Of a stretch of 64,000 nt of DNA, positions 13,014-53,324 are shown piece after piece. The stretch comes from a virus. Location of the stretch: the IMG/VR virus record IMGVR_UViG_3300048839_001082, positions 1 through 64,000 of that record. The stretch is one strand, 5' to 3'. A program made the position numbers and the translations under genes. The notes beneath the pieces are model-generated. The model saw only the letters and a list, made by a program, of their open reading frames with translations. It did not search any database and was not told where the DNA came from. Positions within the stretch are counted from its first letter, which is position 1, and each line of letters starts with the position of its first letter.

Positions 13014-13055
13014 CCCGCTAGAGTAGATTTTATCTGCTTTAGCGGGTTTATTTTT
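13014..13055 (+). terminator. hairpin/terminator before the tape measure gene
   Basis: CCCGCTAGAGTAGAT-TTT-ATCTGCTTTAGCGGG followed by TTATTTTT. Confidence 0.5.
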
Positions 13056-13068
13056 GAATTGGAGTGAT

Positions 13069-24213: not shown

Positions 24214-27200
24214 ATGCCCGGTGGAAATCCATATGAAGATTATGCAGCATCAGTTGATGCACAATCCGCTGCCGAAGCTGCGGTAGTCCCTGAACAATAT
24301 AATACAGTAACAATTCCCGGAACGGTTTTAAATAAAACTGTTGAAGGTGAAAAGAATGAGTTTTTATTTATTCAACAAGCATTATGTGTAGGACCAATTC
24401 AAGGTGTTTATGATGTGTTAATTGATGATGGTTTAGGGCTTACTGAACCTTCACTAGGTGCTGCAGGTTATGAAGATTTAGATGCAAAACCACTTTACCA
24501 AAGTGCGGCAATGCGTTTTGATATTCATAATGGAAATGGTGAAGAAGCTGATAATATCTTAGTAAAGAATTTTCCATCTAGATACTCAGCTAAATTTCCA
24601 AATACTGCGAATGCTTCTATCTGTGTTAAGCTAGATAGAGAAAATCCGCAATTCAATGGCGTGCCCAATGCGCAATTTTTCATCGAAGGTAAATTAGTAA
24701 GAGATATTACAAGGTCAGGCTCAGTTGGTGCTTATACTTACGCACTCACTGGTTTTGTTTACAGTAACAATTCCGCACTTTGTTTATTAGATTATCTTTT
24801 GTTATCGGAAGGTGGAAAAGGACTTTCAGCTTCACAGATTGATCTTGAAAGTTTTTATGATGCCAGAATTTTATGTGACACACCCGTATTAGATAATGCT
24901 TTAATTGGTGGACGTATTTGGAGACCTGAATCTGGCAGAAGAAGTGTTTCACAACGAAACCTTCCACTCTATGAATGTAATATTGTAATAGACACTGAAA
25001 AGACAATCCGTGAAAATGTCGAAGCAATTCTTAACACAATGGGAGACGCTCGACTCGTGTGGAGTCAGTCTAAATATAAACTGGTAGTGGCCTACCCTGA
25101 TTCAAATGCAGCGATTCCATACAGCGGTGAAATCACGGATGATGAATTGGTGCTCGGAGAGCCTATTGATATTTCTTGGCCAACTTCCTCAGAACGCCTT
25201 AATTTTTGTACAGTTCGGTTCAGAAATGAATCGATGGATTTTAAAGAGGATTCTGTTTCATGGCCTCCGAAACAATCAGGTACGTACCTCAGAGGAATTG
25301 GAGCATATTCTTACCCGATAGTTACAGGTTGGCCTTTGGGTGAAACTACCAGTGTGTTCATGAATGCGAATGCTGTTTGGACGGGCGGGACAGATAATAC
25401 ATTTGTTTGGAAGTTCGCAGTAAAGAATTCAGGTGCGCATACTTTAGACATTGCAGTTGATGATGATGGTTTACTCAATGTCAGAAGGAATGGTATTTTA
25501 GAAAGCAACGCCACGAATGTCGGTACTGGTAATAACTGGCGAAACTTCGTAACTCGCAGTTTTAATTGGGTTGAAGATGATATTATTGAAGTTACGATTC
25601 TCGCTAACAATTACCAAGGGCGTATTGCCGGTGTCGCTGGTAGAGTTCTGAATGTTGCCCTTCAAGCTCAGATATGGACCACGAGGTCACCTGCTTATAC
25701 TGATTTTGTTACAGTTAACCAAGATAAAACAGTTTATGATGAATTTTTAACTGAAGATAATAATATTCTTCTTGAAGCAGATATCTTCGCGGACGGTATT
25801 TCAGATTATTACCATGCTTTGGCGAAAGCTGAGGAAATGGTTAGAACAAGCAGAAGCGCATTTATTATTGAATTCACTTACAAAATTAAAGATAGATATT
25901 ACGAACCGGGTGACTTCGTTAAATTGACCAGTTCTACTTTGAATTTTGATGAATTGCCTTTAAAGACCGATGAGATTAAATCAAAAGACGATTTCACGGC
26001 TACTGTGAAGGCTACCAGATTTGACTATACTCAGTTAGCTTGGAATGTAAATGATAATGAATACATTGCTCCGAAAGCTGCCTACGATTTTCTTTTAAAT
26101 GCTCCGAGTGAAGTCGTTTTGGATCGTGAAATAATCTCTAACTTACAATCTTCAGGAACAGTTCGGTGGAAATCAACAGGTGATTCTAAGATAATTGGGT
26201 ATATTGTTTATGTAAATAAAGGTGGTGATAACGATGCAAATGGTTATCCTTTGTTTACTGAAGTGGGCAGAACTGGAATAAGTGAAGAATTCGAACTTCC
26301 AACCCTAGGCTATATGTATGGCGGTGTGGGTGTTAAAGCAATTTCTAATACATCCAGTTCAAAAATGACGGTTAACGCACAAGTCATTTTTAATAATCGT
26401 AAAATTGCATTGACAAGCAGCGATACACAGTTTATTAGAAGAGGTCCTGTTGATGAACCTAGTACAATAACACTGACAGCACACATTGCCGGATATGTGA
26501 ATCCAGTGATCCATTGGTACAAGAACGATGTGCTTTTGCCTGACTCTTCAACAACACTTGTTATTTCTTCAGATCCTGATGGTCTAAGTGTTGTTTATAG
26601 ATTAACAGTTGAAGAATCAGAATTTGTTTGGAATGGTGAACACAGAACAGCTCTCTATAGTACAATTACCATAGCCACACTGTCTGTCGGAAATGCGGCA
26701 TTTACGGACTACATATTTAGACGTGCTTTAACTATGCCGGCAACACCTACAGAACAAGGGATGCCGGCAGGGTGGTACGACACGCCTCCCACACCAAATG
26801 GAAATCCATTATGGGTAACGTGGGCTGAAAAAGATTCTGATGGTTTCCTGATCACATCTTGGGTCACTCCCGTGAATATTGAATCGGGTGATATTCATGT
26901 TCAATATAGTAAAGATGGTATTGCTGATTGGCATGATGTATTTGCTCCCGGCGATCTTTTCATTCATTACAATGTGAATGGAGGGGCTTGGTCAGCAGCG
27001 ATACAAATTTCTTTTGAAGGTATTGATTATTTAACAACTCATTTCATATTCACACGTTCCTTACTTGACCCTCCAGCTCTTGATAATACCGCAGATGAGC
27101 CTGTCGGATGGCTTGATGCGCCTCCAACAAACACGTTATTAGGTCCGCTGTGGTTTAGCACCGGCCAACGTTATAAAAATGGTCAGCTGAATAATGTGTG

Positions 27201-30200
27201 GAGTCCTCCCGTCAAATTAGAAGGCGAGGGTGTTATAGCTGAATACAGTGTTACTGGATTACCTGGCACATGGCACTCTGTATTTGCTGAAGGTGATCTT
27301 TATGGTCGTTACAAAGTTGGTGATGGTGACTGGTCAATTGCGGCAAGAATCGTTGCGGAAAATGGAACTTATGTTAGCTATATCTTTAAAAGATCAGCTA
27401 CAGATATAAGTGGAACACGACCCACGGGAAATGATCCCACATCAAATCAGGGATGGTTTGATGCGCCTCCAGCGGCTAATGTTAATGGTGATCCACTCTG
27501 GGCAAGTTTTGCTAATAAAACACTTGATGATGTTGTGATTGGGCTTTGGAGTTTCCCGGTACAGCTTGAAGGTGGTGCTTTTAAGATAGAATATAGTGAT
27601 GATGGTTTGGGAGATTGGAATGCTACTTTCAATGGGACCACACATAAATGGGCTCGCGTAAGTCAAGATAATGGTGCTCACTGGTCACCTTCATATAAAA
27701 TAGTTGGTGAAGATGGAACATCTTTTGTACTCAAAGGTACAAAGGCAACTGTGGGTGATCTGCCAGCTTCCGGAAATGCAGTGGGTGATATTTGGATTGT
27801 GACCGCGGACGGGAATGGTTATGCATGGGATGGTGATTCTTGGAATAATGTAGGCTCAATTCAAGGACCTGAGGGGGCTGCCGGTAAATATTCCACATTT
27901 GTGTTTAAACGAGCACCGGCAACACCGGTACCGACAACACCTACAGGGAACGATCCGACCGCACAAGGCTGGCTTGATTCCCCTCCAGCTGCGGATAACG
28001 GAAAGCCATTATGGGTCTCAACGACTTACAAAACAGCCGCGGGTGTATTGATCTCTCCGGGCTGGACCACTCCGGTACAATTGGAAGGTTCCGCCGTAAA
28101 GGTTCAATATAGTGATGATGCTGCTGGTACCAATGGATGGTTTGATACTTTCAATGGCACTACTCACAAATGGGCACACTACTCAACGGATGGTGGTTTC
28201 AATTGGTCGGCTTCAATAAAGATTGTCGGTGAGGACGGTGCTGACGCTATTTACGTTGATTTGACATCTGAATCGGATGTTACTGCAGCGGAGGCTGACG
28301 GCACCGGGTACGTACTCCCTTCAAGCAATCAATTAAAATTGTATGTTGGCGGTGTACATACAACAGTTGGTGTTACTTACGGTGGTAATGGGACTGTATC
28401 GGGCCTTACGGCAAGCATTAATACTTCAGGTGTGATCACATTCTCAGGTGCAAGTTGGACTTCAGATACGGTGGAATTCACGTTCACCGCGACACTCAAT
28501 TCTATCAGTTATTCAGCCAAATACACTTACGCAAAATCAAGAAAAGGTTCCGATAGTATTTTTCCGGATCTTTTATCTGAAGCGGATGTCATTTCAGCAA
28601 ATTTATCGGGAGTTTTGACAGCTTCTTTGCCGACGGGAAATAAATTCAATTTGCATAAGGGTGGTTTTATAATCCCATCAGCGCAAGTTGTCTTCGGCGG
28701 TAGTACTACGAGAAATGGATTGACATTAAATATTGGTGCTTCAACTGGAGTTATTACACTCACTCAAAATCCCACTTGGACAAGTCTTTCTGAATCCTTT
28801 GTGTTAACTGCTACATATGGCCCTCCAGGTTCTGAAGTTGTGTACAGTAAAATTTACACCATATCTAAAGCACAACAAGGTGCGACGGGTGATGCCGGAT
28901 CGAAAGGTGATACCGGTGAGCAGGGTGCACCGACCTATACATGGGTTGCTTATGCTAATGACGCTAATGGCACTACGCTCTTTTCGACGACAGACCCCGT
29001 CGGTCGTGCATATATTGGTCTAGCTTTCAATCAGTTAACACCGACACCTGAAGCATGGCCTGGATATTATACATGGTCTTTAATCAAAGGCGAACAAGGT
29101 ATTCCGGGTGTCGGTATTCAAGGACCTCCTAGCTATACTTGGATAGCTTATGCAAATAACGCTACAGGCTTAAATTTCAATACAGGAGCTTGGACTAACG
29201 AAACTTATATCGGTATTGCTGTAAACAAATCAACTGCGGATGAATCCGGAAGTGTTTGGTCGGATTATGTGTGGTCAAAAATTCAAGGTTCGAAAGGTGA
29301 TACTGGGAATCCTGGTCAACGCACCATAATTTTGACCTGTTATAAATGGTATATGAGCGCACCCGCAGTCAATGATTATACACAGGTTGTGACTTATACA
29401 TGGGCAGGCGGGCCTATAAGCTATCCAGGTGGTACTATTGCATGGGCGACAGCTGCTCCCGCAAATACCTTGGGGGAAGGCGCATCATTATATCAATTAG
29501 AATTACATATAACAGACTTAACGGGTATTTCGACTCAAACAGTTTCCAATTGGTCCGCGGCAAAACTAAATGTAATTGGATATACACCCGCAGGTATTGT
29601 TGGTGCCAATGGGCAATCCGCAAGAAAAGCCTACAAAGTTACTACCATACTTTCTCCAGCGCCAAGCGTTACTGCAGGAGTGGGAGATGCAGCTCCGACG
29701 GGAGGATGGTCGTTTATTGCCACAACAACACTTGCTTCGTATGAATATCAATTCACTGTGGATGGCATTCTAACTCCCGGTGGTAATATTACATGGGGAA
29801 ATCCTTATTTAGCTTCATGGAAAGTTGGTAATTTACAAGCTATAGCCGTCGATACAGGTGCTCTTAATGTTTCATTAGGGATGACGATTTCTGATACAGG
29901 GAGCATTGCGTCATCAGGTGCTACTGCTTTTGGAACAGGTGTTGGTATCTGGCAAGGTTATGAAGCAGGTCAATACAAAGCCAGATGGGGAAATCCCACA
30001 GGCGCTAGAGTGCAATGGACAGGTACCAACTTTCAAGTTTATAATACAAACAATCAACTTGTGTTGAGTGCGGGTGGAGCGGTGTGGGATTATGTTACAG
30101 GGACGGGCAAACCCGCGAACAATGCGGGGACGGTAATTGATGGTTCAAGAACCACAAACCCGCAACCTCAAGAATTTCCGCCTCATGAAACATTTTATCT

Positions 30201-31125
30201 TAAAGATGCAGCATCTATCCAGCACCCTACGACGTATGGTTCCCTTGGTATATTAAGAACTGTTCGTCCTTACGGACCAGCTGATGATCCAGATCTTACA
30301 GGTGGTGCTGTTAATCAATGGTTTGAAATTAACGGAATGGTGGGATTCCGAAAATCCACAAATGCAACTACGTGGGGCAGTTGGGAGTATGTTCCTAATG
30401 GCAAAATTAAAAGTAGCAATGTCACCACATTTATTGACTCCGCGGCTATTGGTTGGGCACAAATCGGTAATCTAGATATAAATGCCAATGGTTATTTACG
30501 ATCTGTCAAACCAAGCTATGGCAGTGCCACTGCCGGTATTTATCTTGCTTATAATAATGGTGTCCCTCATTTAGACATTGGTGATTCAACAAAGTATTTT
30601 CGTTGGAGTGGAACTGATTTATTGGTCGGTGGAGACATCATTGCCACCGGGAATATCAAGGCGAGGAATGTTACTAACTCTATATCCAATTCTCTTCAAA
30701 ATTTTCAATTGCCAGTAACAGGAGGAAATGGTGCTTATCAAAGACTTATTGTCGGTGATTTTACTAAAGAACATGCAGGTTCAAAAGTTTTTTTATACTT
30801 AACACTTGTTTTAAATATAAATATAGTGAGTGGAGTTAATGGAGGTCTTGCTTCTTTAGTAGTTCCAGTGGCAGTTATAGGTGGTAAAGGAGCTGAGTCT
30901 TACATTTTTAGATATCCTGTTTCATCTTATTATACATCAAGTCCTATTAATATTCCTATATCGTTTTCAATGGACATTACCCCTTATGTATACGATGGAT
31001 CTCCCAATCCTATAAATATTGATATTAATTATATACAGTTGGTAAATGCTAATCAAGTTTCATTTAATTGGATTAGTACTGCTTTCTTATCAGGATCGTG
31101 CATTGTAACAGAATTGAAAGTATAG
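24214..31125 (+). CDS. central tail fibre/host-specificity (gpJ-like) protein, 2303 aa
   Basis: SNNSALCLLDYL and ID.ESF tip motifs, FN3-like segment, four Trp/Pro-rich repeats, collagen-like G-x-x runs. Confidence 0.85.
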   Translation: MPGGNPYEDYAASVDAQSAAEAAVVPEQYNTVTIPGTVLNKTVEGEKNEFLFIQQALCVGPIQGVYDVLIDDGLGLTEPSLGAAGYEDLDAKPLYQSAAMRFDIHNGNGEEADNILVKNFPSRYSAKFPNTANASICVKLDRENPQFNGVPNAQFFIEGKLVRDITRSGSVGAYTYALTGFVYSNNSALCLLDYLLLSEGGKGLSASQIDLESFYDARILCDTPVLDNALIGGRIWRPESGRRSVSQRNLPLYECNIVIDTEKTIRENVEAILNTMGDARLVWSQSKYKLVVAYPDSNAAIPYSGEITDDELVLGEPIDISWPTSSERLNFCTVRFRNESMDFKEDSVSWPPKQSGTYLRGIGAYSYPIVTGWPLGETTSVFMNANAVWTGGTDNTFVWKFAVKNSGAHTLDIAVDDDGLLNVRRNGILESNATNVGTGNNWRNFVTRSFNWVEDDIIEVTILANNYQGRIAGVAGRVLNVALQAQIWTTRSPAYTDFVTVNQDKTVYDEFLTEDNNILLEADIFADGISDYYHALAKAEEMVRTSRSAFIIEFTYKIKDRYYEPGDFVKLTSSTLNFDELPLKTDEIKSKDDFTATVKATRFDYTQLAWNVNDNEYIAPKAAYDFLLNAPSEVVLDREIISNLQSSGTVRWKSTGDSKIIGYIVYVNKGGDNDANGYPLFTEVGRTGISEEFELPTLGYMYGGVGVKAISNTSSSKMTVNAQVIFNNRKIALTSSDTQFIRRGPVDEPSTITLTAHIAGYVNPVIHWYKNDVLLPDSSTTLVISSDPDGLSVVYRLTVEESEFVWNGEHRTALYSTITIATLSVGNAAFTDYIFRRALTMPATPTEQGMPAGWYDTPPTPNGNPLWVTWAEKDSDGFLITSWVTPVNIESGDIHVQYSKDGIADWHDVFAPGDLFIHYNVNGGAWSAAIQISFEGIDYLTTHFIFTRSLLDPPALDNTADEPVGWLDAPPTNTLLGPLWFSTGQRYKNGQLNNVWSPPVKLEGEGVIAEYSVTGLPGTWHSVFAEGDLYGRYKVGDGDWSIAARIVAENGTYVSYIFKRSATDISGTRPTGNDPTSNQGWFDAPPAANVNGDPLWASFANKTLDDVVIGLWSFPVQLEGGAFKIEYSDDGLGDWNATFNGTTHKWARVSQDNGAHWSPSYKIVGEDGTSFVLKGTKATVGDLPASGNAVGDIWIVTADGNGYAWDGDSWNNVGSIQGPEGAAGKYSTFVFKRAPATPVPTTPTGNDPTAQGWLDSPPAADNGKPLWVSTTYKTAAGVLISPGWTTPVQLEGSAVKVQYSDDAAGTNGWFDTFNGTTHKWAHYSTDGGFNWSASIKIVGEDGADAIYVDLTSESDVTAAEADGTGYVLPSSNQLKLYVGGVHTTVGVTYGGNGTVSGLTASINTSGVITFSGASWTSDTVEFTFTATLNSISYSAKYTYAKSRKGSDSIFPDLLSEADVISANLSGVLTASLPTGNKFNLHKGGFIIPSAQVVFGGSTTRNGLTLNIGASTGVITLTQNPTWTSLSESFVLTATYGPPGSEVVYSKIYTISKAQQGATGDAGSKGDTGEQGAPTYTWVAYANDANGTTLFSTTDPVGRAYIGLAFNQLTPTPEAWPGYYTWSLIKGEQGIPGVGIQGPPSYTWIAYANNATGLNFNTGAWTNETYIGIAVNKSTADESGSVWSDYVWSKIQGSKGDTGNPGQRTIILTCYKWYMSAPAVNDYTQVVTYTWAGGPISYPGGTIAWATAAPANTLGEGASLYQLELHITDLTGISTQTVSNWSAAKLNVIGYTPAGIVGANGQSARKAYKVTTILSPAPSVTAGVGDAAPTGGWSFIATTTLASYEYQFTVDGILTPGGNITWGNPYLASWKVGNLQAIAVDTGALNVSLGMTISDTGSIASSGATAFGTGVGIWQGYEAGQYKARWGNPTGARVQWTGTNFQVYNTNNQLVLSAGGAVWDYVTGTGKPANNAGTVIDGSRTTNPQPQEFPPHETFYLKDAASIQHPTTYGSLGILRTVRPYGPADDPDLTGGAVNQWFEINGMVGFRKSTNATTWGSWEYVPNGKIKSSNVTTFIDSAAIGWAQIGNLDINANGYLRSVKPSYGSATAGIYLAYNNGVPHLDIGDSTKYFRWSGTDLLVGGDIIATGNIKARNVTNSISNSLQNFQLPVTGGNGAYQRLIVGDFTKEHAGSKVFLYLTLVLNINIVSGVNGGLASLVVPVAVIGGKGAESYIFRYPVSSYYTSSPINIPISFSMDITPYVYDGSPNPINIDINYIQLVNANQVSFNWISTAFLSGSCIVTELKV

Positions 31126-32666: not shown

Positions 32667-33212
32667 ATGGAATTAATAGCTGCAGTATTCGGTTTCTTTG
32701 CTCCATTTCTGACTGAAGCGTTTAAGATATTTCAGAAGAAACAAGATAATGCTCATGAGCTCTCCATGATGAGAATTCAGATTGAAGCTAAAGCACAAGA
32801 ACATGTTTATAGAATGGAAGAGATTAATGCTAATGCTGATATCGCTGAAATGAGCACTCTCAGAGCTGCTCCTACATCTTTCGGTGTACAGTTGATCGAT
32901 GCAGCTGCTAATAAGAATTTTAGCAAGTGGATGATTGGCCCGGTATTTTATCTATTTGCCATTCTTGATTTTATATCCAGTCTCGTGAGACCCACGATCA
33001 CTTACGCGGCTTTCACGTTTTACGCGGCAGTGAAGTGGGCTCAGTTTGAGCATGCTCGTACATATCTTGGAAGCAATTATAGCGCGCTTTTGCAGATATG
33101 GACGACTTCAGATATGTCCATTGTTATTTTAGTGCTATCCTATTGGTTTGGACAAAGAGCAGCTAAGGCAGCCTTTGGTGGCTCAGCTAATACAATAACC
33201 AAAGGTGGCTAA
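32667..33212 (+). CDS. putative holin (3TM-holin-like)
   Basis: Transmembrane segments with VRP.ITY and YWFG.R motifs; directly upstream of the endolysin. Confidence 0.65.
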   Translation: MELIAAVFGFFAPFLTEAFKIFQKKQDNAHELSMMRIQIEAKAQEHVYRMEEINANADIAEMSTLRAAPTSFGVQLIDAAANKNFSKWMIGPVFYLFAILDFISSLVRPTITYAAFTFYAAVKWAQFEHARTYLGSNYSALLQIWTTSDMSIVILVLSYWFGQRAAKAAFGGSANTITKGG

Positions 33213-33712
33213 TGGACAAAGAAGTCTTAGAATTGGTGAAAACAATTGCAATGCCATTCGAAAGACTTTATTTAGATGCGTATTGGGACCCTCATCCTCA
33301 CGGTCTTCCGACACAAGGATGGGGTCGTCTCCTCTCTCGCTACAGTCGGAAAATGCATCTAGATGAAGGTAAAACTTTAGAGCAAGCTAATGAATGGCTT
33401 CGCACCACATATCCACGAATAACCAGAGACACGGCTGATGAATGGCTTGAAGAAGATATTGAAAAGGCTAATAAAGCGGTTAAACGATTGGTCAAGGTCT
33501 CACTCACTCCGGGACAAGAAGCTGCCTTAACTGATTTTGCCTATAACGTAGGACCGGGCAATTTACAAATTAGCACACTTCTTAGAATGATAAATCGAGG
33601 TGACTTCCCGGATGCCGTTGAAGAATTTGAGAAGTGGAATAAATCAGGGGGTGTTGTTCTTAAAGGTCTAGTTCGCCGTAGAGCGGCTGAAGTTTTGATG
33701 TTTATGCTTTGA
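33212..33712 (+). CDS. endolysin, phage lysozyme (GH24)
   Basis: FE.....AY.D...T.GWG, AL.DFAYNVG and KW.K.GG.VLKGLVRRR.AE motifs. Confidence 0.9.
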   Translation: MDKEVLELVKTIAMPFERLYLDAYWDPHPHGLPTQGWGRLLSRYSRKMHLDEGKTLEQANEWLRTTYPRITRDTADEWLEEDIEKANKAVKRLVKVSLTPGQEAALTDFAYNVGPGNLQISTLLRMINRGDFPDAVEEFEKWNKSGGVVLKGLVRRRAAEVLMFML

Positions 33713-36499: not shown

Positions 36500-36573
36500 T
36501 TAACGCAGGAAGCTGATAGTTAGGGCATCGATCAAAAGTCGGTGCCTTAAAATCAGTTTAACAAGGAGACTGT

Positions 36574-36807
36574 ATGGATTCAAGAGAGACTGCCCATTTT
36601 GTGGAAGGTGCGATGATGGAGTACTATCGTCGCAACGAATGGAATCCTGAAGACTATACTCGGTATACTCAGGAAACGATCAATAAGGTCTGGAGGTATC
36701 TGACTCAACCGAGTCAAACCATTGATGCGTCTTACACGGATATTCAAGCGCACATCGCGCTCGAAGCAGGTAAGATTCATTTTCCGCAAAGTCTCAAGCG
36801 CCGCTAG
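36574..36807 (+). CDS. hypothetical protein
   Basis: AAGGAG RBS; stop codon lies within the 5' end of tRNA-Arg. Confidence 0.65.
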   Translation: MDSRETAHFVEGAMMEYYRRNEWNPEDYTRYTQETINKVWRYLTQPSQTIDASYTDIQAHIALEAGKIHFPQSLKRR

Positions 36808-36873
36808 CTCAGGGGATAGAGCAACGGCCTTCTAAGCCGTAGGCCGCTGGTTCGAATCCAGCGCGGTGCGCCA
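36798..36873 (+). tRNA. tRNA-Arg (TCT)
   Basis: GCGCCGC/GCGGTGC acceptor stem, ACGGC-CTTCTAA-GCCGT anticodon arm, GGTTCGAATCC, encoded CCA. Confidence 0.95.
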
Positions 36874-36875
36874 GT

Positions 36876-37176
36876 TAACGAACGATGAGATGACGGGTTA
36901 GCGCCGTCATTGGTCAGAAGACTCCTTTCTCCGTAAACGCTGCTTCATGCGAGCTCATCGTTCGTTATTCTAACTGTCCTGCTCGGATACGTCCCTGAGA
37001 GTATTGGACGAAAGGCATTAAAAGCAGCTGAGACTTGGTTGCAACTCATGAGGCAGCTGTGCTATAAGTCGATCGAAATCTGGGAAGAGCCGGGATGTCT
37101 GTGTCCCGTAGTAAGAAAACAGAATAGGTTGAGACTGTACTGCCGAACCAGTACGCCGGAAGGACAGTAACCGGCA
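36876..37176 (+). ncRNA. putative structured RNA(s) D/E downstream of tRNA-Arg
   Basis: Perfect 14-bp stem 36876-36889/36954-36967; 8-bp pairing 36973-36980/37161-37168; three TGAGA T-loop-like hairpins. Confidence 0.5.
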
Positions 37177-37188
37177 TCCTACAATTGC

Positions 37189-37509
37189 ATGGAGAATGAT
37201 GTGACAGATTTCAGTAAACCTTTTGTTGTAAATTCGAATCCGTTCGGCTCTTTCGGAAGGGACTTTGAGAAGCTCGTTCCGAGACTCGAAGACATTCCTG
37301 AAGATTTCGATAATAAGCGTAAGTGGGAGGAGTGGCAGTCTGAATGGTTTTTCTCAGGTCTGACACCGACTCCGACACCTCGCCCTGGAATTGATGTCGA
37401 TTTGGCATTGCGACATCTCGCCGCAATTCAGCGTTCGTGGGAACCAAAGCACGAGCACAAGCAGATCTACGTAGCCTATCTTGCCAGTCTCTGGTTTGAA
37501 CATCCTTGA
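37189..37509 (+). CDS. hypothetical phage protein (SWEPKHEHK motif)
   Basis: Plausible composition; coupled to the next ORF. Confidence 0.6.
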   Translation: MENDVTDFSKPFVVNSNPFGSFGRDFEKLVPRLEDIPEDFDNKRKWEEWQSEWFFSGLTPTPTPRPGIDVDLALRHLAAIQRSWEPKHEHKQIYVAYLASLWFEHP

Positions 37510-37520
37510 AAGGAATTATT

Positions 37521-37856
37521 ATGATGAACACTGAAATGTTGGCCGCTTTTGAATCCGCCAAAAATGAAATTCAGAGAATTCTGGAAGACTGTGAAAAGAC
37601 GAGAGGTAAGAAATTCCGGGTGTATGTCGAACTGATGCAAACGCTGACACTGCTCTTTCAGTCCGGTGGAGTTGGGACCGGAATTCTCACCGCAAAAACG
37701 GCTGAAGTTTGCGGAGCAATCAGCGTGGAACTCGGCCTCAGTGATGCGGACAGCCGAGAAGCATTGAATATCGTGAGATCTCTCGAAAAGATCGGCAAAG
37801 AATTGGGAGATAAATTGTCACTTGCCCGAGCGGACGGTGTGTCCAATTTGAACTAA
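37521..37856 (+). CDS. hypothetical protein
   Basis: AAGGA RBS before ATG 37521. Confidence 0.65.
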   Translation: MMNTEMLAAFESAKNEIQRILEDCEKTRGKKFRVYVELMQTLTLLFQSGGVGTGILTAKTAEVCGAISVELGLSDADSREALNIVRSLEKIGKELGDKLSLARADGVSNLN

Positions 37857-37867
37857 AGAAGGCAATC

Positions 37868-37981
37868 ATGAACAAACAAAAAGGTTTCACGATTTTTGAG
37901 TTGATCGCAGCACTCGCCACTGTGGGTATTTTCAGTGTTGTAGCTTACGTGTTATTTCATTTCATCAGCAAGTTCTGGTGA
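37868..37981 (+). CDS. 37-aa prepilin-like peptide (MNKQKG/FTIFELIAALATVGIFSVVAYVLFHFISKFW)
   Basis: Class III signal: basic leader, G at -1, F at +1, E at +5, then a hydrophobic helix; GAAGG RBS; absent from the ORF track. Confidence 0.7.
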   Translation: MNKQKGFTIFELIAALATVGIFSVVAYVLFHFISKFW

Positions 37982-37986
37982 TTCGA

Positions 37987-38063
37987 GGGCCGTTAGCTCA
38001 GTCGGTAAGAGCAGCGGACTCATAATCCGTTGGTCGTTGGTTCAAGTCCAACACGGCCTACCA
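37987..38063 (+). tRNA. tRNA with CAT anticodon, most likely tRNA-Ile2 (lysidine) rather than Met
   Basis: Cloverleaf with GCGGA-CTCATAA-TCCGT arm and CCA; lacks initiator features; resembles enterobacterial ileX-type tRNA as recalled. Confidence 0.9.
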
Positions 38064-38078
38064 ATAAGGAGATAGTTC

Positions 38079-38198
38079 TTGAAAGAGCTCTACAAACCCT
38101 TAACCGAAAAGGAAGAAAAACTCGGTGTGATACTAAGGGCCATCACTGTTGTTGGGCTCACGGTTTTTTGGGCTTTTGTAATTGCATATCAATTTTAA
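38079..38198 (+). CDS. small membrane protein, 39 aa
   Basis: AAGGAG RBS, TTG start, one hydrophobic helix. Confidence 0.5.
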   Translation: MKELYKPLTEKEEKLGVILRAITVVGLTVFWAFVIAYQF

Positions 38199-38201
38199 AC
38201 A

Positions 38202-38226
38202 GCGCGTAAATCAGTATCTTATATGA
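38202..38226 (+). promoter_or_regulatory. candidate early promoter GCG-N9-GTATCTTATATGA (copy 2)
   Basis: Exact core repeat of 34442..34454. Confidence 0.55.
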
Positions 38227-38257
38227 AGAGATCCCTCTTCTAACTTTGGAGTAAAAG

Positions 38258-38557
38258 ATGACCTCTTTCCAATGGATCAGTTTGTTGGTGACATTCACGA
38301 TCAGTTACATTTACGGATTTGTGTTGAGCATTTTCTTCATGAGTCTGTTCCTGAGCATTGGTGTGGAAGCATTGGCGGCGGTGCTTTTGGCGACCGGCGC
38401 GACCTTCCTTGTCACTCTCGGAACGATCAACCCACTCATGACAGTTTGTGAGAATGCTTCGACACTCGCTTACAGTGCATACGATAACATCCGAAAGGGT
38501 GTGAAGAGTCTTCGGAAGTCTCCGAAGAAGGATAACGTATTTATTCTCAACTTTTGA
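38258..38557 (+). CDS. membrane protein
   Basis: Two hydrophobic helices and a basic tail; GGAG RBS. Confidence 0.65.
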   Translation: MTSFQWISLLVTFTISYIYGFVLSIFFMSLFLSIGVEALAAVLLATGATFLVTLGTINPLMTVCENASTLAYSAYDNIRKGVKSLRKSPKKDNVFILNF

Positions 38558-38567
38558 AGGAGATGTC

Positions 38568-38813
38568 ATGTTCAAGACTATTGTTAATTTTCTCTTCAGT
38601 GGCCTGAGTTTCGCATGGTTCGTTCTGCTTCTCGGTGGGCTGATCACCATGTTGACCGCGCCTTCGCTGTTCGGTTTCGTGCTCGTCACGGCGGGTGCGT
38701 TGGCCACCCTCAAACTGGCCGTGGCAATCGCGTTCGGTGTCGGCGGCTTGCTCGGCGCCGGTGCGCATTATCTACGGCGGCGTTTGACAGGGCATAAGTT
38801 CGAGCAAGTATGA
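38568..38813 (+). CDS. membrane protein
   Basis: AAGGAG RBS; hydrophobic helices and a basic tail. Confidence 0.65.
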   Translation: MFKTIVNFLFSGLSFAWFVLLLGGLITMLTAPSLFGFVLVTAGALATLKLAVAIAFGVGGLLGAGAHYLRRRLTGHKFEQV

Positions 38814-39037
38814 TCGCATCTTTAAAACGTGCGGTGCTGGCCATGACAGTAGTGCTGTTTATCGGAATGCTTTTAGCGTTCTTTAGTGCACCTGTTTTCT
38901 TAGGGTTCACTATCATAACAGCCTCTGTCGTGGCCACAGTGACCACATATGCTCTGCTGGCATTTACAGTTACCTTCCTTTGGGAATGGTTGAGGAAAAA
39001 GAATGCAAAACATTCAAACAATCAATCGACCGCCTGA
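38810..39037 (+). CDS. membrane protein
   Basis: ATGA overlap; two hydrophobic helices and a basic tail. Confidence 0.6.
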   Translation: MIASLKRAVLAMTVVLFIGMLLAFFSAPVFLGFTIITASVVATVTTYALLAFTVTFLWEWLRKKNAKHSNNQSTA

Positions 39038-39302
39038 AATACTGGTAGAAGGATTCTTTGCAACGCGCAAAGATTATCCAGATATCAGTAAGCAATTTTT
39101 GGATGAGCAATCGTTCAAACAGAGTGTGAGAAGATTTACTGCTGATGATCTATACATTACAGACATAGAAAAACTAAAAGGAAATCTTTTGAATGCAATC
39201 GAGGTAGTAGGTGTTATACAGCTGTCAGGGTCGCTCATCCCATTCTTCGTCACGAAGGAAAAAGCAAAACAATTGCGAATGTTGATTGGTAGACGGAGTT
39301 GA
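39003..39302 (+). CDS. hypothetical protein
   Basis: GAGG RBS; last gene before the terminator. Confidence 0.6.
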   Translation: MQNIQTINRPPEILVEGFFATRKDYPDISKQFLDEQSFKQSVRRFTADDLYITDIEKLKGNLLNAIEVVGVIQLSGSLIPFFVTKEKAKQLRMLIGRRS

Positions 39303-39311
39303 TAAAATAAA

Positions 39312-39365
39312 CTACCAAGCACCTTAAAAAGGTGCTTGGTAGAGTTCCCTATTTTTTTTTTTCGA
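39312..39365 (+). terminator. 14-bp hairpin plus A-T11-CGA (copy 2)
   Basis: CTACCAAGCACCTT-AAA-AAGGTGCTTGGTAG then T11CGA. Confidence 0.65.
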
Positions 39366-39594
39366 AAGGGCAATGTGAGCGAGAATGAAATCAAGGGCGT
39401 GCATTTTTTGATGATTGTGATTACCTTGATTGTTCTTTCTCCTTTGTCATTTGAAATGTCGGTATTAGTGTCGATTTTAATCTATATGTATCAGAAAGAA
39501 ATGACCAAATGAAAATTTTGATCTTGCTGTTTTTATTGTATGTAATTCCAAAAATTGTCAGTAAACTTAAATAAATTGTAAATCAGGAGTCGTC

Positions 39595-42351
39595 TTGAAA
39601 TCGAGAGTAGTGGCTTCATTGACTCGGAGAATTACCACTGAAGCTGTTCTGCAAGCTCAGTTACGATTCTTAAAAGAGCATGATGTGAACTCTTATGTAA
39701 ATACTGTAATTTCTACATTATACTTGTACACAAGACCTAAAAAGGGTTACGAAACAACTTCTGTTTACATGGCTGAATTGATTTCTGCCTTGGGTCATGG
39801 TGTGCGAACAAAACTTAAGCTCAAAAGAGACTCCAATGCCGCTGCTAAACTAGGTGCATTTTTATTATATACATTCGAAGAACTTGGTTATATAAAAGTG
39901 ATATTGGGTGTGGGAACGAGACACGCCACTTATATCGTGACTGTAACCAATGACAATGCAATAGTATCGATGTGGAGTGCGATGGAAGCTTCTCATATTG
40001 AGAAATTACCGTCCGGAACTCCATATGCTCCTTGGACCAGCACAAAACATAATGCTGGAATTCGAATGGTGAAGACTAATGATAAAGGAGTACTTGATAA
40101 AATCGCTCCTGAAACTCATCCAATTTTATTCAATGTACTTAACAAAGCTCAAGCCGTCGGTTGGAGAATTCATAAAGAGATTTACGACCTTCATGCATGG
40201 GCGCTAAGGAATAAAACGGATGCATTTGCCGATATTTGGGAACAACAAAATCCCGAAGCGAAGGCTACGAAAATAAGAGAAGTTAAAGCCATCGGCGAAA
40301 TGGCAAAGAAGTTTCTTAACAGTCCAATATATCATCTCTATTATTATGATTTTCGTGGTAGGAAATACACGAATACAGCTTATTTACATGAACAGGGTAA
40401 TGATCTGGCCAGAGCTTTACTCCAAAGAATTGACGAGAAGAAAATAGGCAGAGCAGGTTATTGGTGGATGCTGGTATCAATTGCGTCAAATTGGGGTGGT
40501 GATTCTGGCAGACTTGATGGACTAAAAACTGATAAGATTCCCCTTCAAGAACGTTATTTATGGGCGTTAGATAATGAAGATATTTTATTGGCATATGCTG
40601 AAAAGCCTAAGGTACATCAAGGTTGGATGAAGGCTGACAAACCTTGGCAGTTTCTCGCAGGATGCATTGAGCTAAAAAGACTCAGAGAATGGCAGTATCA
40701 ATACGGCAGTGTTAAAAACCCATTTGAAGATTATAATTATGAATCTCACATGGAAGCCTACATTGATGGTAGCAATAATGGTTCTCAACATCTGGCTGCT
40801 TTGACGCTGGATGAAGTCACGGCGCCTCACGTAAATTTGGTTCCGTTAGAACTTCCAGGAGATCTCTATTCTTATGTGGCCGGACATGTATGGGACCATC
40901 TGCATGAGCTCTTGAAAGATTATCCAGAAGAAGAACGTGAAGACTGTGAAATCTTTATCGATAACTTGATAGAATTGAAGAAGAAGATAACTGCGGCCGA
41001 GCCTAAAAGCGATGTGAGAAGAGAATTAATAGCTTCGATTCAAACTTTTAAAGAGGCTAATCAATATATTCTAGATAAATCTGCCGCGGTGTATTGGTAC
41101 AGGATCGAAGATAATAAGCACAAAAGAAAGATCGTGAAGAGAAACGCGATGACAATTCCGTTGTAAAGGCGGAAGTAAAAGAGGGTGAATTCAGTGGACA
41201 TCCATTCGCTGTGGACAATACTGAGCCGAGCCGTTTAAACGGAAGGTGCAACGACTATCATGTAGGGCAGAAGTCTGCTCGAAGCCCCCTCCACTCCTTG
41301 AGTGATGATATAGTCTGGTCTGCATAGTAATATGCAGCTGTATTAAGCAATTGGTATGAATATGAATTGGAACGAAATCTTTATCTACAACGCAGATGGC
41401 AGTTTAACGAGGCGTTATTCAAATAATCAGCATAATACTGTTGGCTGGATAAATAGTTCAGGTTACAGAGGTGTTGTTAGAACTAAAAATAATAAATTTC
41501 AAGCACGTTTAACGCTAGAAGGTAAAAAGCTTTACTTAGGCTTGTTCGATACGCCCAAGGAAGCTTTTGATTGTGTTGAAACTACACGTAAAGAGTTGTA
41601 CGGCGAATTTGCAACTCTTAGATAAATTGCTTAATACGGGTGAAGATTAACGAACTTCATTGAACACAACGATGGTGGAACAAGTTATGGAATGGGGCAG
41701 CAGATAATTGATGATTCTAGAAAACACGGTATTGACCAGTTACTCTATTTAGAACATAAATGGGGTGCCTTCTTGGGTAGAGCCGTCTTTAATGATTGTC
41801 GATTATCTTTAAAACGCCCTATGAAGCTGTTATCAATTTTTGAAGAAGCCGGAAAGAAAGCCGAGAAACAAGGTAGATTTCTGTCTTGGACAGTGCCTAT
41901 AACAAATTTCCCAGTAGTTCAACACTACACAGAAGGTGTGGTGAAGAAGGTCTGGTGTCAATATGGTCCTCCTAGGGGTCCTCGACTCAGTACAAATTAC
42001 TTCGAAAACACTTACCAAATTTCTATTTCTTTCATCGAAGAACGTGTGCCTTCCCGAAATAAACAATCTCAAGGTGCGAGTCCCAATGCCATTCATAGCT
42101 TAGATGCAGCTCATTTGGCGTTGACCGTTGAAAGATGTGATTTCCCAGTAACTACCATTCATGATAGTTTCGGGTGTTTATTAGCTGACATGCCTGTTTT
42201 GTTCAGGACGGTTAGAGAGACTTTTGTTGAACTTTATAATGCCAATCCGTTAGAGCATTTAATGAAAGACTTAGGCTGCAATATCAATGATGTGGATAGA
42301 GGTACGCTAGATATTTCACTAATACTCGAATCTGAGTATGCATTTTCATAG
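39595..42351 (+). CDS. T7-like DNA-dependent RNA polymerase, intron-split: join(39595..41161,41672..42351), 748 aa
   Basis: DFRGRKY, motif A IDGSNNGSQH, motif B restored by splicing (RKIVKRNAMTIP-Y-GG), PNAIHSLDA, motif C TIHDSFG, C-terminal YAFS. Confidence 0.9.
41162..41671 (+). mobile_element. group I intron in the RNAP gene (510 nt)
   Basis: P1 TTCCGT/GCGGAA with U-G at the 5' splice site; P7 elements ACGACTA and GATATAGTCT; terminal G; splicing restores frame and motif B Tyr. Confidence 0.9.
41356..41625 (+). pseudogene. intron-encoded HNH-AP2 homing endonuclease remnant lacking the HNH domain
   Basis: SGYRGV...KFQAR....GKKLYLGLFDT..EA...LYGEFA AP2-type domain; no HNH motif; flanked by the TATTAAGCAATT/AATTGCTTAATA stem. 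Confidence 0.7.
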
Positions 42352-50500: not shown

Positions 50501-50717
50501 AATTTTAGCCGCATTGTCGGTGTTATCCGCATTTTCCGCATTGCTTTACGGTAGTTTCATTTTGATATCTAAGACGGTCCCTTTGGAAAGTGTTGATTAT
50601 ATCTTACTAGGGATTACATTTATGATCGGAGGCAAGGTTTTTATCAGCTTCACTGAAACCTCCAAGGACAAATCCAGCGATGGGAACGATAGTAGCCAAG
50701 AACAGACCTTGCCTTGA
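50493..50717 (+). CDS. small membrane protein
   Basis: Two hydrophobic helices. Confidence 0.55.
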   Translation: MSKILAALSVLSAFSALLYGSFILISKTVPLESVDYILLGITFMIGGKVFISFTETSKDKSSDGNDSSQEQTLP

Positions 50718-53316
50718 TAGTGCTTGTGGCTCTTCAGACGCGAGGCAAATATATGAAGATGGCACAAGCTTCTGTTTCTCTTGCATGAAGTTCTTTCCTA
50801 AAAATGCAGAAGATATCGTGCCAGATAAAGAAGAACATAACTATTTACCGAAAGTGGTAAGAACAGTGGAAGATATCGAAAAGAAGCTTAAAGAAATTTC
50901 CACCCTCCCAGTGAGAGGGTTTAAAGAGAGAAAAGTCTCAAAAGAAGTTTGTGAATTCTTCGATGTTAAGGTTTCTTATAATGCAGATAGTGGTGAAATC
51001 GCTGCTCACTATTATCCTTATGAAAATGGAAAAGCCTATAAAGTCCGAGAGCTTCCTAAACAATTCAAATGGATTTCGAAATCAGAAGATCTCTTTGGTA
51101 AAGACAAATTCAGCAGTGGCGGAAAGCGAATTTTCATTGTAGAAGGTGAAGTTGATACGTTGAGTGTTGCACAGACCCTTCACGACAAGTATGGAAAAAT
51201 TTATCCTGTTGTGGGTCTCTCATCAGCCACGATCGCTGGAAAGACACTTTTAAAAAATCGAGAGTGGTTACGAAGCTTTAAAGAAATTATTCTGTGTCTC
51301 GATAATGATGATGCTGGCAAGGTGGCCACAGAAACAGCCATCAAGATACTAGGTATTGATAAAATTAAAGTTGTCAAACTGGCCGGAAAAGATCCTAATG
51401 AAGTATATTTAAAGCAAGGCTCTTCTGTCTTAATGCAGAATCTATTTGATGCTGCTCCATATATTCCTTCCGGTATCATTACCAAAGAAGCACTATGGGA
51501 AGCACTGGTTAACTATAACAATACACCTTCGATTCCATATCCTGCTTGTGTGCATCGTTTAAATGAAAAAGTCAAAGGGATGCGTAAAGGGGAAATTACT
51601 CTCTTTGTGTCTGGCACTTCCTGCGGCAAGAGCACATTGTTGCGAGAAATCATGCTCAGTAATCAAGAATTGACCACAAGTAAAATTGGTGTTGTCAGTC
51701 TTGAGGAATCTCCCGCGGAAACTGCGCGTAAGTTGTCGGGAATGAAAATTAATAAAAATCCTGCTAAAGAGGAGATACCACTTGAAGAGCTCAAAGTCGG
51801 TTTTGACGCTGTGTTCGGAGATGATCGCTACATTGTATTGGACCATCAAGGATCACTTAAAGACGAAACGATTTTGGACAAGCTTGAGTATATGGCTCTT
51901 AGTGGTTGTGAGTATATATTTATTGATCATATCACGATTTTAGTATCTGAAGGTGCCGGTGAATTGACGGGCAATGAAGCCGTTGATAAGATCATGAACG
52001 ATCTATTAAGATTCGTTAAAAGACATAATGTCTGGATTGGGTTAGTTTCACATCTTCGAAAAACCACGAACACAGGTAAGTCATTCGAAGAAGGCAGAAT
52101 GCCCAATCTAGATGATATCAAGGGATGTTTAGCATACAATACTGAAGTGTTGCTCTCAAATGGTCATTCTACTGCAGTTCAAAATATTAAGATTGGAGAT
52201 TGTTTGATAGGGGATAATGGGATACGTCGTGTGCTCTCATTAAGGAGGGGTGAGCAACAGATGTATAAGGTTACCACTAAGACCACGAATGACAGTTTTA
52301 TATGTAATGAAGATCATGTTTTAACAGTATCTCATAATGATATTTTATTAGACATCTCAATCAAAGATTTTCTTAAAAAGAGTAGCAGTTTTCAGGAAAG
52401 ATGTAAACAGCATTACTCAAAGGGATATGAATTGCCTGAAAAAACTTTATTGATCCCACCATATGCTCTTGGTGCTTGGTTAGGAGATGGTTCTAAATCG
52501 GCATTTAGAATAATGGATGCTAGCGAACTCGGCATCGCTGAGAGAGTTGCAAGGGAACTTAATGCGGAATTGAAACAACCCTCAAATAAAAGAAGAGAGT
52601 ATTTCAACTTTGATACAGGTGTTCAGGGCGACATGCTCACGCGATTGAAAGAATTAGATCTCCTTTGTAACAAACATATTCCTGAAGAGTATATATTTAA
52701 CACAAAAGAAAACAGACTTCTTTTGTTAGCAGGTTTAATTGATACTGATGGAACATACAGCTATAAAGATAATGCTTACTATTTTTACCAAAAAGATGAA
52801 GTATTGGCAGAGAATGTAAAAAAGATAGCAAGATCATTGGGTTTCTATAGCAATGTTAGATCACAAATCATCAATGGTAAATATTCGTCCAATGGTAGTT
52901 TAATTTTTGTAGTGACAATTTCTGGTGATATTGAACAAATTCCTGCTCAGAAAAATATTAAATTAACTCTTAATGAAAGACACACAGATCCATTAAAACG
53001 TGGCATTATTATAGAAAAATTAGGTATTCAACCTTATTACGGATTTACATTAGATGGAAATGGCAGATTTCTATTAGGAAATCATACAATCACTCACAAT
53101 TCAGGCTCAATCAAGCAAATATCATTCGACATTGTTGCTTTCGCGCGTAACCTTCAAGAGCCAGATCCAATCAAATGTAATACCATCTCCATGTCAGTAT
53201 TGAAATGTCGTTTCTCAGGATTGACTGGAGAAATTGGCGGTTCTTATTATGACTATGATACCGGTAGGTTCAGACCGGAAGAGGAAATTCCACAAGAAGA
53301 TTTCACTTCGTTATGA
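50680..53316 (+). CDS. T7 gp4-like primase-helicase with intein
   Basis: Zn-binding PC..CGSSDA...FCFSC, TOPRIM EGEVD and DND, Walker A GTSCGKST, IDHI, SHLRK, KCRFSG. Confidence 0.95.
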   Translation: MGTIVAKNRPCLDSACGSSDARQIYEDGTSFCFSCMKFFPKNAEDIVPDKEEHNYLPKVVRTVEDIEKKLKEISTLPVRGFKERKVSKEVCEFFDVKVSYNADSGEIAAHYYPYENGKAYKVRELPKQFKWISKSEDLFGKDKFSSGGKRIFIVEGEVDTLSVAQTLHDKYGKIYPVVGLSSATIAGKTLLKNREWLRSFKEIILCLDNDDAGKVATETAIKILGIDKIKVVKLAGKDPNEVYLKQGSSVLMQNLFDAAPYIPSGIITKEALWEALVNYNNTPSIPYPACVHRLNEKVKGMRKGEITLFVSGTSCGKSTLLREIMLSNQELTTSKIGVVSLEESPAETARKLSGMKINKNPAKEEIPLEELKVGFDAVFGDDRYIVLDHQGSLKDETILDKLEYMALSGCEYIFIDHITILVSEGAGELTGNEAVDKIMNDLLRFVKRHNVWIGLVSHLRKTTNTGKSFEEGRMPNLDDIKGCLAYNTEVLLSNGHSTAVQNIKIGDCLIGDNGIRRVLSLRRGEQQMYKVTTKTTNDSFICNEDHVLTVSHNDILLDISIKDFLKKSSSFQERCKQHYSKGYELPEKTLLIPPYALGAWLGDGSKSAFRIMDASELGIAERVARELNAELKQPSNKRREYFNFDTGVQGDMLTRLKELDLLCNKHIPEEYIFNTKENRLLLLAGLIDTDGTYSYKDNAYYFYQKDEVLAENVKKIARSLGFYSNVRSQIINGKYSSNGSLIFVVTISGDIEQIPAQKNIKLTLNERHTDPLKRGIIIEKLGIQPYYGFTLDGNGRFLLGNHTITHNSGSIKQISFDIVAFARNLQEPDPIKCNTISMSVLKCRFSGLTGEIGGSYYDYDTGRFRPEEEIPQEDFTSL
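52126..53100 (+). mobile_element. intein with LAGLIDADG endonuclease (325 aa)
   Basis: G|CLAYNTEV...THN|S junctions; block B NEDHVL; LGAWLGDG and LAGLIDTDG; removal restores DDIKG-SGSIKQ. Confidence 0.95.
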
Positions 53317-53324
53317 AAGGTATA

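Follow-up and report, generated by a model that had tools for sequence, protein, structure and literature searches.

Type IV pili are used in colonisation and are major phage receptors, and to our knowledge the phage-encoded pilus blockers known so far (Tip, Aqs1, and PfsE) come from a few Pseudomonas phages. In the summary given in PMC8764522, Tip of phage D3112 and Aqs1 of phage DMS3 shut down type IV pili and confer superinfection exclusion, and PfsE of the filamentous phage Pf4 is described there as an inner-membrane peptide of ∼30 residues, with a conserved aromatic cluster (YAWGW), that binds PilC, abolishes twitching, and keeps out pilus-dependent phages (PMC8764522). In Caulobacter, PilA cut to 17, 25, or 37 mature residues is reported still to signal via the first membrane helix of the PleC kinase, and a synthetic peptide (CIP) is reported to make cells 77% less susceptible to phiCbK and to lower their attachment by 71% (PMC7196804). 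Intramembrane sensing of PilA by PilS in Pseudomonas is cited both in that paper and in PMC6058289.

The gene considered here, termed the mini-prepilin gene, is located in virus record IMGVR_UViG_3300048839_001082, which is 81,522 bp long, carries direct terminal repeats and is rated complete. The window, to which all coordinates below refer unless another genome is named, is the first 64 kb of that record (64,000 nucleotides). The source is a complete 81.5-kb tailed-phage genome, in which PHROG matches identify the portal, the major head protein, the tape measure (3202 aa), tail proteins, and the endolysin (33212-33712). Next come 6 kb of small ORFs with two tRNAs, then a T7-type RNA polymerase gene, and after it replication genes; the mini-prepilin gene lies inside the small-ORF stretch, upstream of the polymerase gene, and this small-gene/tRNA block probably represents the early region. 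Among named polymerases, the closest come from roseophages DSS3_VP1 and DSS3_PM1 (31% identity) and from Pelagibacter phages (27%). Related DNA turned up only in metagenome runs from wastewater, freshwater, soil, and sludge, with no RNA run among them.

Several other features of this genome were recorded in passing. The tape measure (13054-22662, +) is unusually long, and a tail-fibre-like protein of 2303 aa is encoded at 24214-31125 (+). A 1558-aa protein (3211-7884, +) combines an N-terminal Mu-F/SPP1 gp7-like head-morphogenesis domain (PF04233, 48.9 bits) with a T7-type RNA polymerase domain at approximately aa 995-1215 (PF00940, 42.7 bits against 22; phrog_414, E 7.9e-22), and could represent a minor head protein joined to a polymerase that travels in the virion, beside the separate polymerase gene. 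The latter (39595-42351, +) is divided into two ORFs of 523 and 219 aa, between which lies an 89-aa HNH/AP2-like homing-endonuclease ORF (41356-41625), whereas the relative L002 has one uninterrupted 750-aa gene. The primase-helicase (50680-53316, +) contains an intein with Hom_end_hint and LAGLIDADG domains (aa 483-750), and the ribonucleotide reductase (53313-56042, +) is in two ORFs split by a LAGLIDADG homing-endonuclease ORF (54434-55060). Directly after tRNA-Met are four small predicted membrane ORFs of 39, 99, 81, and 75 aa (38079-39037, +), for which no family match over the cut-off was obtained; in related phages the corresponding site, ahead of the polymerase gene, is occupied by different small membrane ORFs.

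The mini-prepilin gene (37868..37981, +) consists of 37 codons plus TGA, running from the ATG at 37868 to a TGA that ends at 37981, and encodes MNKQKGFTIFELIAALATVGIFSVVAYVLFHFISKFW, exactly the translation given in a preliminary description of this DNA; the reading frame has no upstream in-frame start. The ribosome-binding site mentioned there can be identified as the Shine-Dalgarno-like 5-mer GAAGG (37858..37862, +), situated 5 nt before the ATG, a match of at least five being found in just 19 of the 84 long genes of the genome. The ORF fills the space between the preceding gene, whose stop codon is at 37854-37856, and tRNA-Met (37987-38063), sharing its strand with nearly all genes, and by codon log-likelihood its own frame is the best (-146, compared with -172 and -163 for the other frames). 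A scan for promoters and terminators gave nothing usable, with 5 and 4 sites found compared with 4.8 and 3.3 for shuffled sequence. Third-position GC content is 0.51 in the ORF (37868-37978, +), compared with 0.35 in the long genes of the genome, which fits an origin elsewhere, that is, an acquired gene.

The ORF is very short and is carried by none of five related phages, observations that speak for a chance, untranslated ORF. This explanation is nevertheless barely credible, in view not only of the Shine-Dalgarno-like site and the codon preference for its own frame but also of full-length homologues (43-65% identity) that are spread over many phages of unrelated type and share invariant residues at either end. 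Since 37 of 38 library matches extend across the full query and have lengths of 36-43 aa, the mini-prepilin ORF is confirmed, as far as sequence comparison goes, as a genuine phage gene, and a chance ORF is unlikely.

Strain variation is consistent with this assignment. Contigs of four sequencing runs were compared with positions 36500-39600, and one of them (X3) spans 37519-38048, and with it the entire ORF, with 38 differences and no gap (93% identical). In contigs from runs X1 and X2, position 37524 is joined to 37946 with 74 other letters between. The left side of this joint ends one base past an ATG (37521-37523) that is preceded by an AAGGA site, and the right side starts exactly at codon Y27, the first residue of the C-terminal motif described below. 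The resulting 3 + 1 + 74 = 78 nt amount to 26 codons, and the 37-codon frame is kept by letter count alone; in this variant the first 26 codons have diverged past alignment, and the motif codons and the tRNA are kept. Because 421 - 74 = 347 = 37868 - 37521, the 116-aa ORF immediately upstream (37506-37856, +) represents an indel between strains, the contigs of the two runs being without exactly the 347 nt that lead from its internal ATG at 37521 to the mini-prepilin ATG at 37868.

The product begins with a class III (prepilin) leader, M1-N-K-Q-K-G6 (37868..37885, +), with cleavage predicted after G6, a residue invariant in 38/38 family sequences. This basic leader is followed by F-T-I-F-E and then by a hydrophobic stretch (L12-F30). 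Residues 1-27 match the Pfam N_methyl model PF07963 at 29.7 bits (cut-off 21.2; E 4.3e-7), and TIGR02532 matches at 22.6 bits (cut-off 16.3); in all six frames of the 81,522-bp genome the mini-prepilin is the sole N_methyl match (E 1.5e-7 per genome). The prepilin signal of the preliminary description (G-1, F+1, E+5, and a hydrophobic helix), for which a profile match had been suggested as a check, is therefore recognised by both models above their curated cut-offs. A Pfam scan at E <= 1 gave N_methyl only, and the sequence reads F-T-I-F-E-L with no E-Y, so that assignment to the Flp/Tad (type IVc) class fails. From the signal, a host that possesses a prepilin peptidase is a reasonable expectation. 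A single prediction, run without controls, of a complex between the Pseudomonas aeruginosa prepilin peptidase and the peptide gave a score of 0.00 (mark 0.32).

The predicted mature peptide, F7-W37 (37886..37978, +; mature F1, E5, and G14), is 31 residues long and, according to an AlphaFold2 model built on the family alignment and a profile search of the PDB, would form a single continuous helix. The model has one helix at residues 9-36 (mean pLDDT 92.5) and no globular domain, and the family profile matches pilins among solved structures (MshA, Geobacter PilA-N, and PilA) at positions 1-26 only. A pilin-type globular C-terminal domain is absent, the protein ending 31 residues past the predicted cut, which bears out the earlier characterisation of the peptide as having no globular head. 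For want of that head domain the structural definition of a pilin fails: the mini-prepilin has a class III signal by sequence but, as modelled, is structurally no pilin. The N-terminus of prepilins is cytoplasmic, and the signal thus implies that the N-terminus of the mini-prepilin would be cytoplasmic and its C-terminal end on the periplasmic side.

That end carries a motif which the preliminary description had passed over. In the mini-prepilin it reads Y27-V-L-F-H31-F32-I-S-K35-F36-W37 (37946..37978, +), with the stop codon directly after, and its general form is (Y-V-x-x-)H-F-[ILV]-x-K-F-W-stop. A phmmer search of 1.84 billion representative proteins yielded 38 matches at E <= 1e-3 (best 2.9e-6), 37 of which are 36-43 aa long and align with the mini-prepilin from end to end; the remaining one is an 87-aa call whose end consists of the same 40 residues. 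In an alignment of the window protein with 37 of the matches (A1, 38 sequences), members fall into two length classes of 37 and 40 aa, and seven residues (G6, T8, E11, H31, F32, K35, and W37) are invariant in 38/38. Tyrosine at -10 is present in 26/38 and valine at -9 in 32/38, and the majority have glycine at mature position 14, following the pilin pattern. As judged from these invariant residues, the prepilin signal and the C-terminal motif are both under selection. The single helix of the model places Y27/H31/K35 and V28/F32/F36 at i, i+4, and i+8, from which it follows that, in the model, Y/H/K and V/F/F form one conserved face near the C-terminal end.

Existing annotation touches the signal and leaves the motif aside. 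Source names on two of nine looked-up clusters are 'PilE' and 'prepilin-type ... domain-containing protein', and of 30 Atlas neighbours, 29 bear the N_methyl label, the top three clusters by score among those listed being 35-38 aa long. No Pfam, PHROG, or PADLOC model covers the C-terminal motif, the matches being to N_methyl or to weak, unnamed prepilin-like PHROGs at the N-terminus only; the PHROG search with the window protein likewise returned only weak N-terminal prepilin-like families, and PADLOC gave no match to the mini-prepilin. Sub-threshold Pfam matches on single family members were to PLDc_N, DUF5326, SafA, and PsbX. The unnamed PHROG families 10597, 13280, 11263, and 16515 (59-72 positions) match the signal part only (E 2.6e-5 to 9e-3), which indicates that other short prepilin-like phage proteins exist.

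The motif is more widely distributed than the signal. When viral contigs were scanned for back-translated HF[ILV]xKFW-stop, at least 118 loci were obtained, and 111 in-frame motif ORFs were counted among the matches listed. In at least 72 ORFs (60 unique), a hydrophobic stretch of 20 residues immediately precedes the motif. The matches listed include 56 unique motif peptides of <=50 aa (27-50 aa), of which 14 carry the prepilin signal G-[FY..]-[TS]-x-x-E, the other 42 having unrelated N-termini and no such signal; in three of these 42 (L074, L075, and L090) a decayed prepilin signal can be discerned. Tyrosine at -10 is found in 23 of the 42 leaderless peptides listed, compared with 26/38 in A1, and a small aliphatic residue (V/I/A) at -9 is common to the prepilin-type and leaderless groups; neither position was part of the search pattern. 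Among the same listed leaderless members, 26/42 have a net positive N-terminal flank, compatible with one common topology, and 6/42 a net acidic one, which does not fix the topology.

A profile (A2) was made from the last 26 residues of 48 motif-selected sequences, with the motif in 48/48, and it finds the window ORF (E 3.5e-7) together with three members from cultivated phages that lay outside its input. The window protein has the properties of the family, namely a length within 27-50 aa, one helix, and H, F, K, (F), and W in the last seven residues. Single-helix phage peptides that end in (Y-V-x-x-)H-F-[ILV]-x-K-F-W-stop are thus, by sequence, an undescribed family. No paper was found that prints HFISKFW, HFIAKFW, HFIIKFW, or HFVAKFW, nor one on phage mini-prepilins, in the literature search.

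The three cultivated members are in phages of three families. Aeromonas phage vB_AdhS_TS3 (Demerecviridae, T5-like) has an unannotated 37-aa ORF of the prepilin type at 7483-7596, in a small-ORF block that adjoins a gene annotated 'protein A1'; A1 is a pre-early gene in T5, and this is the pre-early end of such a genome. The member in Aeromonas phage Ahp1_CNU-2021 (Straboviridae, T4-like) is 42 aa long, of the prepilin type and ends in KYW, and that in Stenotrophomonas phage C121 (Schitoviridae) is 36 aa long, lacks the prepilin signal, and is encoded in a left-end small-gene block, 3.1 kb from the left end; both are annotated as hypothetical proteins. A tblastn search of 50,697 phage records with family members detected TS3, Ahp1, and C121 only, a lower bound given the poor sensitivity at such length. 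In all, family members occur in T4-like, T5-like, N4-like, and lambdoid backgrounds and in a T7-RNAP siphovirus.

Bacterial genomes gave a different picture. The stricter pattern YVxxHF[ILV]xKFW is present in 12 of the 118 listed viral loci, with a helix before the motif in all 12, and in a set of 185,579 bacterial and archaeal species, each represented by one genome, it was found at 17 places, a single one of which, in a Chitinophagales MAG, has helix, motif, and stop. Profile A2, at E <= 0.01, matched 0/401 genomes in the class and 0/401 in the phylum of the genome with an Enterovibrio locus (G006, locus L143); in the phylum of the genome with a Chryseobacterium locus (G007, locus L133) it gave 1/401, a borderline match inside a 709-aa frame that is spurious. 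Known holders used as positive controls, including the three cultivated phages and a 3.1-Mb MAG, were recovered in 5/5 cases. On this sampling the family is essentially phage-restricted, not having been found in the ∼1,200 sampled bacterial genomes searched.

The genomic contexts of the family, as read from neighbouring sequence, are early or accessory regions. Among the prepilin-type viral loci listed, 4/12 have genes for RecT/Erf, exonuclease, NinB, NinG, or a repressor next to them, and 2/12 are opposite-strand inserts between myovirus tail genes. No neighbouring gene is common to more than 4 of 44 family loci, which suggests that the peptide acts alone, and no co-occurring pilus, secretion, or receptor gene was found at these 44 loci or at the 12 prepilin-type viral loci. 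Adjacency to a tRNA was considered as a family trait, being seen here and in Ahp1, and was rejected, as a tRNA lies within 500 nt in 1/59 family loci. Neither an N_methyl match nor the motif was found in any of five related phages whose polymerases are 47-61% identical; the gene is hence dispensable, inference from synteny is ruled out, and the gene is best regarded as a sporadic, mobile accessory gene. Use of the neighbouring genes as probes found no relatives, blastn of the region against phages detected tRNAs only, and an exact pattern of the gene 3′ end plus tRNA had 0 matches in viral and metagenome contigs.

The explanation that we prefer, hesitantly and with slightly less than even confidence, is that the mini-prepilin is an early accessory peptide which, once trimmed by the prepilin peptidase of the host, remains in the inner membrane and interferes with type IV pilus or type II secretion function. 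The 37-residue precursor with its class III signal would be made from the early-region accessory gene and would insert in the inner membrane with its N-terminus in the cytoplasm, and a host prepilin peptidase of the PilD/GspO type would then cut after G6 and methylate F7. The remaining 31 residues, a single helix, would be retained in the membrane because no head domain is present. The pilin-like N-terminal half and the invariant C-terminal face (Y21-H25-K29 and V22-F26-F30 plus W31 in mature numbering) may then bind an inner-membrane component that handles pilin helices, candidates being the PilC/GspF platform protein, alignment proteins, a PilS/PleC-type pilin-sensing kinase, or the peptidase itself. 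Type IV pilus or type II secretion function would be lost in the infected cell, and the presumed benefit is that pilus-dependent competitors are excluded and progeny are not wasted on cells already infected. Support for such an involvement of a pilin-handling system comes from the invariant signal, from a family conserved end to end and confined to phages, and from the modelled single helix. We consider a more sweeping proposal rather unlikely in its entirety: that inner-membrane peptides of 30-45 residues (helix plus YVxxHF[ILV]xKFW-COOH), forming a superfamily exclusive to phages and present in many tailed-phage lineages, serve as headless pilin decoys, the prepilin-type members being matured by the peptidase and poisoning the pilin-handling platform or spoofing pilin-sensing kinases such that type IV pili or type II secretion are off within minutes, and the leaderless members doing the same without processing.

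The observation that counts most against a pilin-directed function is that, among the matches listed, 42/56 of the peptides with helix and HFxxKFW have no prepilin signal, so that the most conserved module is not pilin-specific and the target need not be the pilus system; since motif and helix occur without the signal, at least part of the activity would reside in a module that is not specific to pilins. The main rival, possible though less than probable in our estimation, is accordingly worded around that module: the helix and its C-terminal HF[ILV]xKFW end would target some other conserved inner-membrane function (for example the DNA-entry route of superinfecting phages, a transporter, a protease, or a lipid), the leader being one of several interchangeable N-termini for insertion, orientation, or trimming, and pili or secretion not being the target. 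Leaderless relatives are the majority, which favours this rival, and it gains from the three decayed signals among them, from the sharing of Y at -10 and V/I/A at -9 by both groups at positions outside the search pattern, from the net positive flank of 26 of the 42 listed, which would allow a common topology, and from the leaderless C121 member, whose position in a left-end block of small genes is comparable. Inside the prepilin subfamily, however, G-1, T+2, and E+5 are invariant (38/38), which exceeds the needs of a mere insertion signal and favours the pilin-system explanation, E5 being a residue of pilin assembly and interaction; the majority glycine at mature position 14, too, follows pilins. 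The earlier proposal of a pilin mimic accordingly holds as regards a prepilin signal without a head, and is weakened as regards pure mimicry by the listed peptides in which motif and helix occur without the signal; the jamming of assembly, titration of the peptidase, and superinfection exclusion that it put forward are hypothetical.

Two further functions deserve mention. A role in membrane damage or lysis timing, as an inner-membrane oligomer of the holin, antiholin, or depolarising kind, would suit a very small single-helix product with an aromatic and cationic end, and four more small membrane ORFs follow within 1.1 kb downstream; we regard this as improbable, given that the endolysin (33212-33712) and its upstream membrane protein are more than 4 kb away on the upstream side, that the T5-like, N4-like, and lambdoid homologues are in early or recombination regions and not in lysis cassettes, and that no holin family in Pfam or PHROGs matches. 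Type IV filaments are held together by their helix core, from which one might suppose that the mini-prepilin is a minor subunit built into the host pilus or pseudopilus, altering the fibre for the phage rather than blocking it. As reported in PMC12426801, full-length viral pilins are assembled by the host machinery in a haloarchaeon, a finding that lends this supposition some support. It is nonetheless highly improbable for a peptide that lacks a head domain altogether, whose invariant C-terminal end is matched by none of the solved pilins, and most of whose relatives are without the signal needed for assembly.

If the preferred interpretation, disturbance of a pilin-handling system by the peptide, is true, conserved phage-only 'headless pilins' would constitute a different and perhaps widespread route to pilus blocking, and would parallel in nature the synthetic pilin peptides by which attachment is blocked in Caulobacter. 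A putative specific binding site in the inner membrane is suggested by the invariance of the C-terminal motif, and with three phages in culture together with their hosts the question can be tested immediately. The family also illustrates that ORFs of fewer than 40 codons can be conserved genes, though skipped by annotation in at least one deposited genome.

Compared with described systems, the mini-prepilin resembles type IV pilins and type II pseudopilins in its short basic leader ending in G, its F-T-x-x-E and the ∼20 hydrophobic residues that follow, and is unlike type IV pilins in stopping at mature residue 31, with no alpha-1C and no globular domain. Unlike solved pilins it has the invariant HF[ILV]xKFW carboxyl end, and unlike host pilins it is phage-encoded and was not found in the bacterial genomes sampled (∼1,200). 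Geobacter PilA-N ('Geopilin domain 1'), the shortest of the solved pilins, likewise has little beyond the N-terminal helix, and its chains 9egp_A and 7tgg_A are the second and third best PDB matches of the family profile; these proteins are host-encoded and work with a partner, PilA-C, their solved chains have 69 and 90 residues compared with 37 for the mini-prepilin, and they do not have the KFW end. Tip and Aqs1 act on the cytoplasmic ATPase PilB and, unlike the mini-prepilin, are neither membrane peptides nor pilin-like. A virus-borne prepilin signal is shared with full-length viral pilins such as the cyanophage 'pilin' (Synechococcus phage ACG-2014f has a gene so annotated, and PHROG 3433 matches weakly over the mini-prepilin signal, E 0.0016) and SNJ2 PilA1/2, which are at least 120 aa long with a head domain, those of SNJ2 being reported to build pili (PMC12426801). 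PfsE is described without a prepilin signal and is by that description set apart from the mini-prepilin (PMC8764522). The Caulobacter CIP is likewise a headless pilin helix in the inner membrane, reported as sufficient to act in Caulobacter (PMC7196804), the difference being that laboratory truncations of a host Flp-type pilin are compared with a natural phage gene that has an additional conserved C-terminal motif. By analogy, the truncated Caulobacter PilA and CIP (as reported in PMC7196804) and the PfsE-PilC interaction (as reported in PMC8764522) provide a precedent for the idea that such a peptide acts on pilus function.
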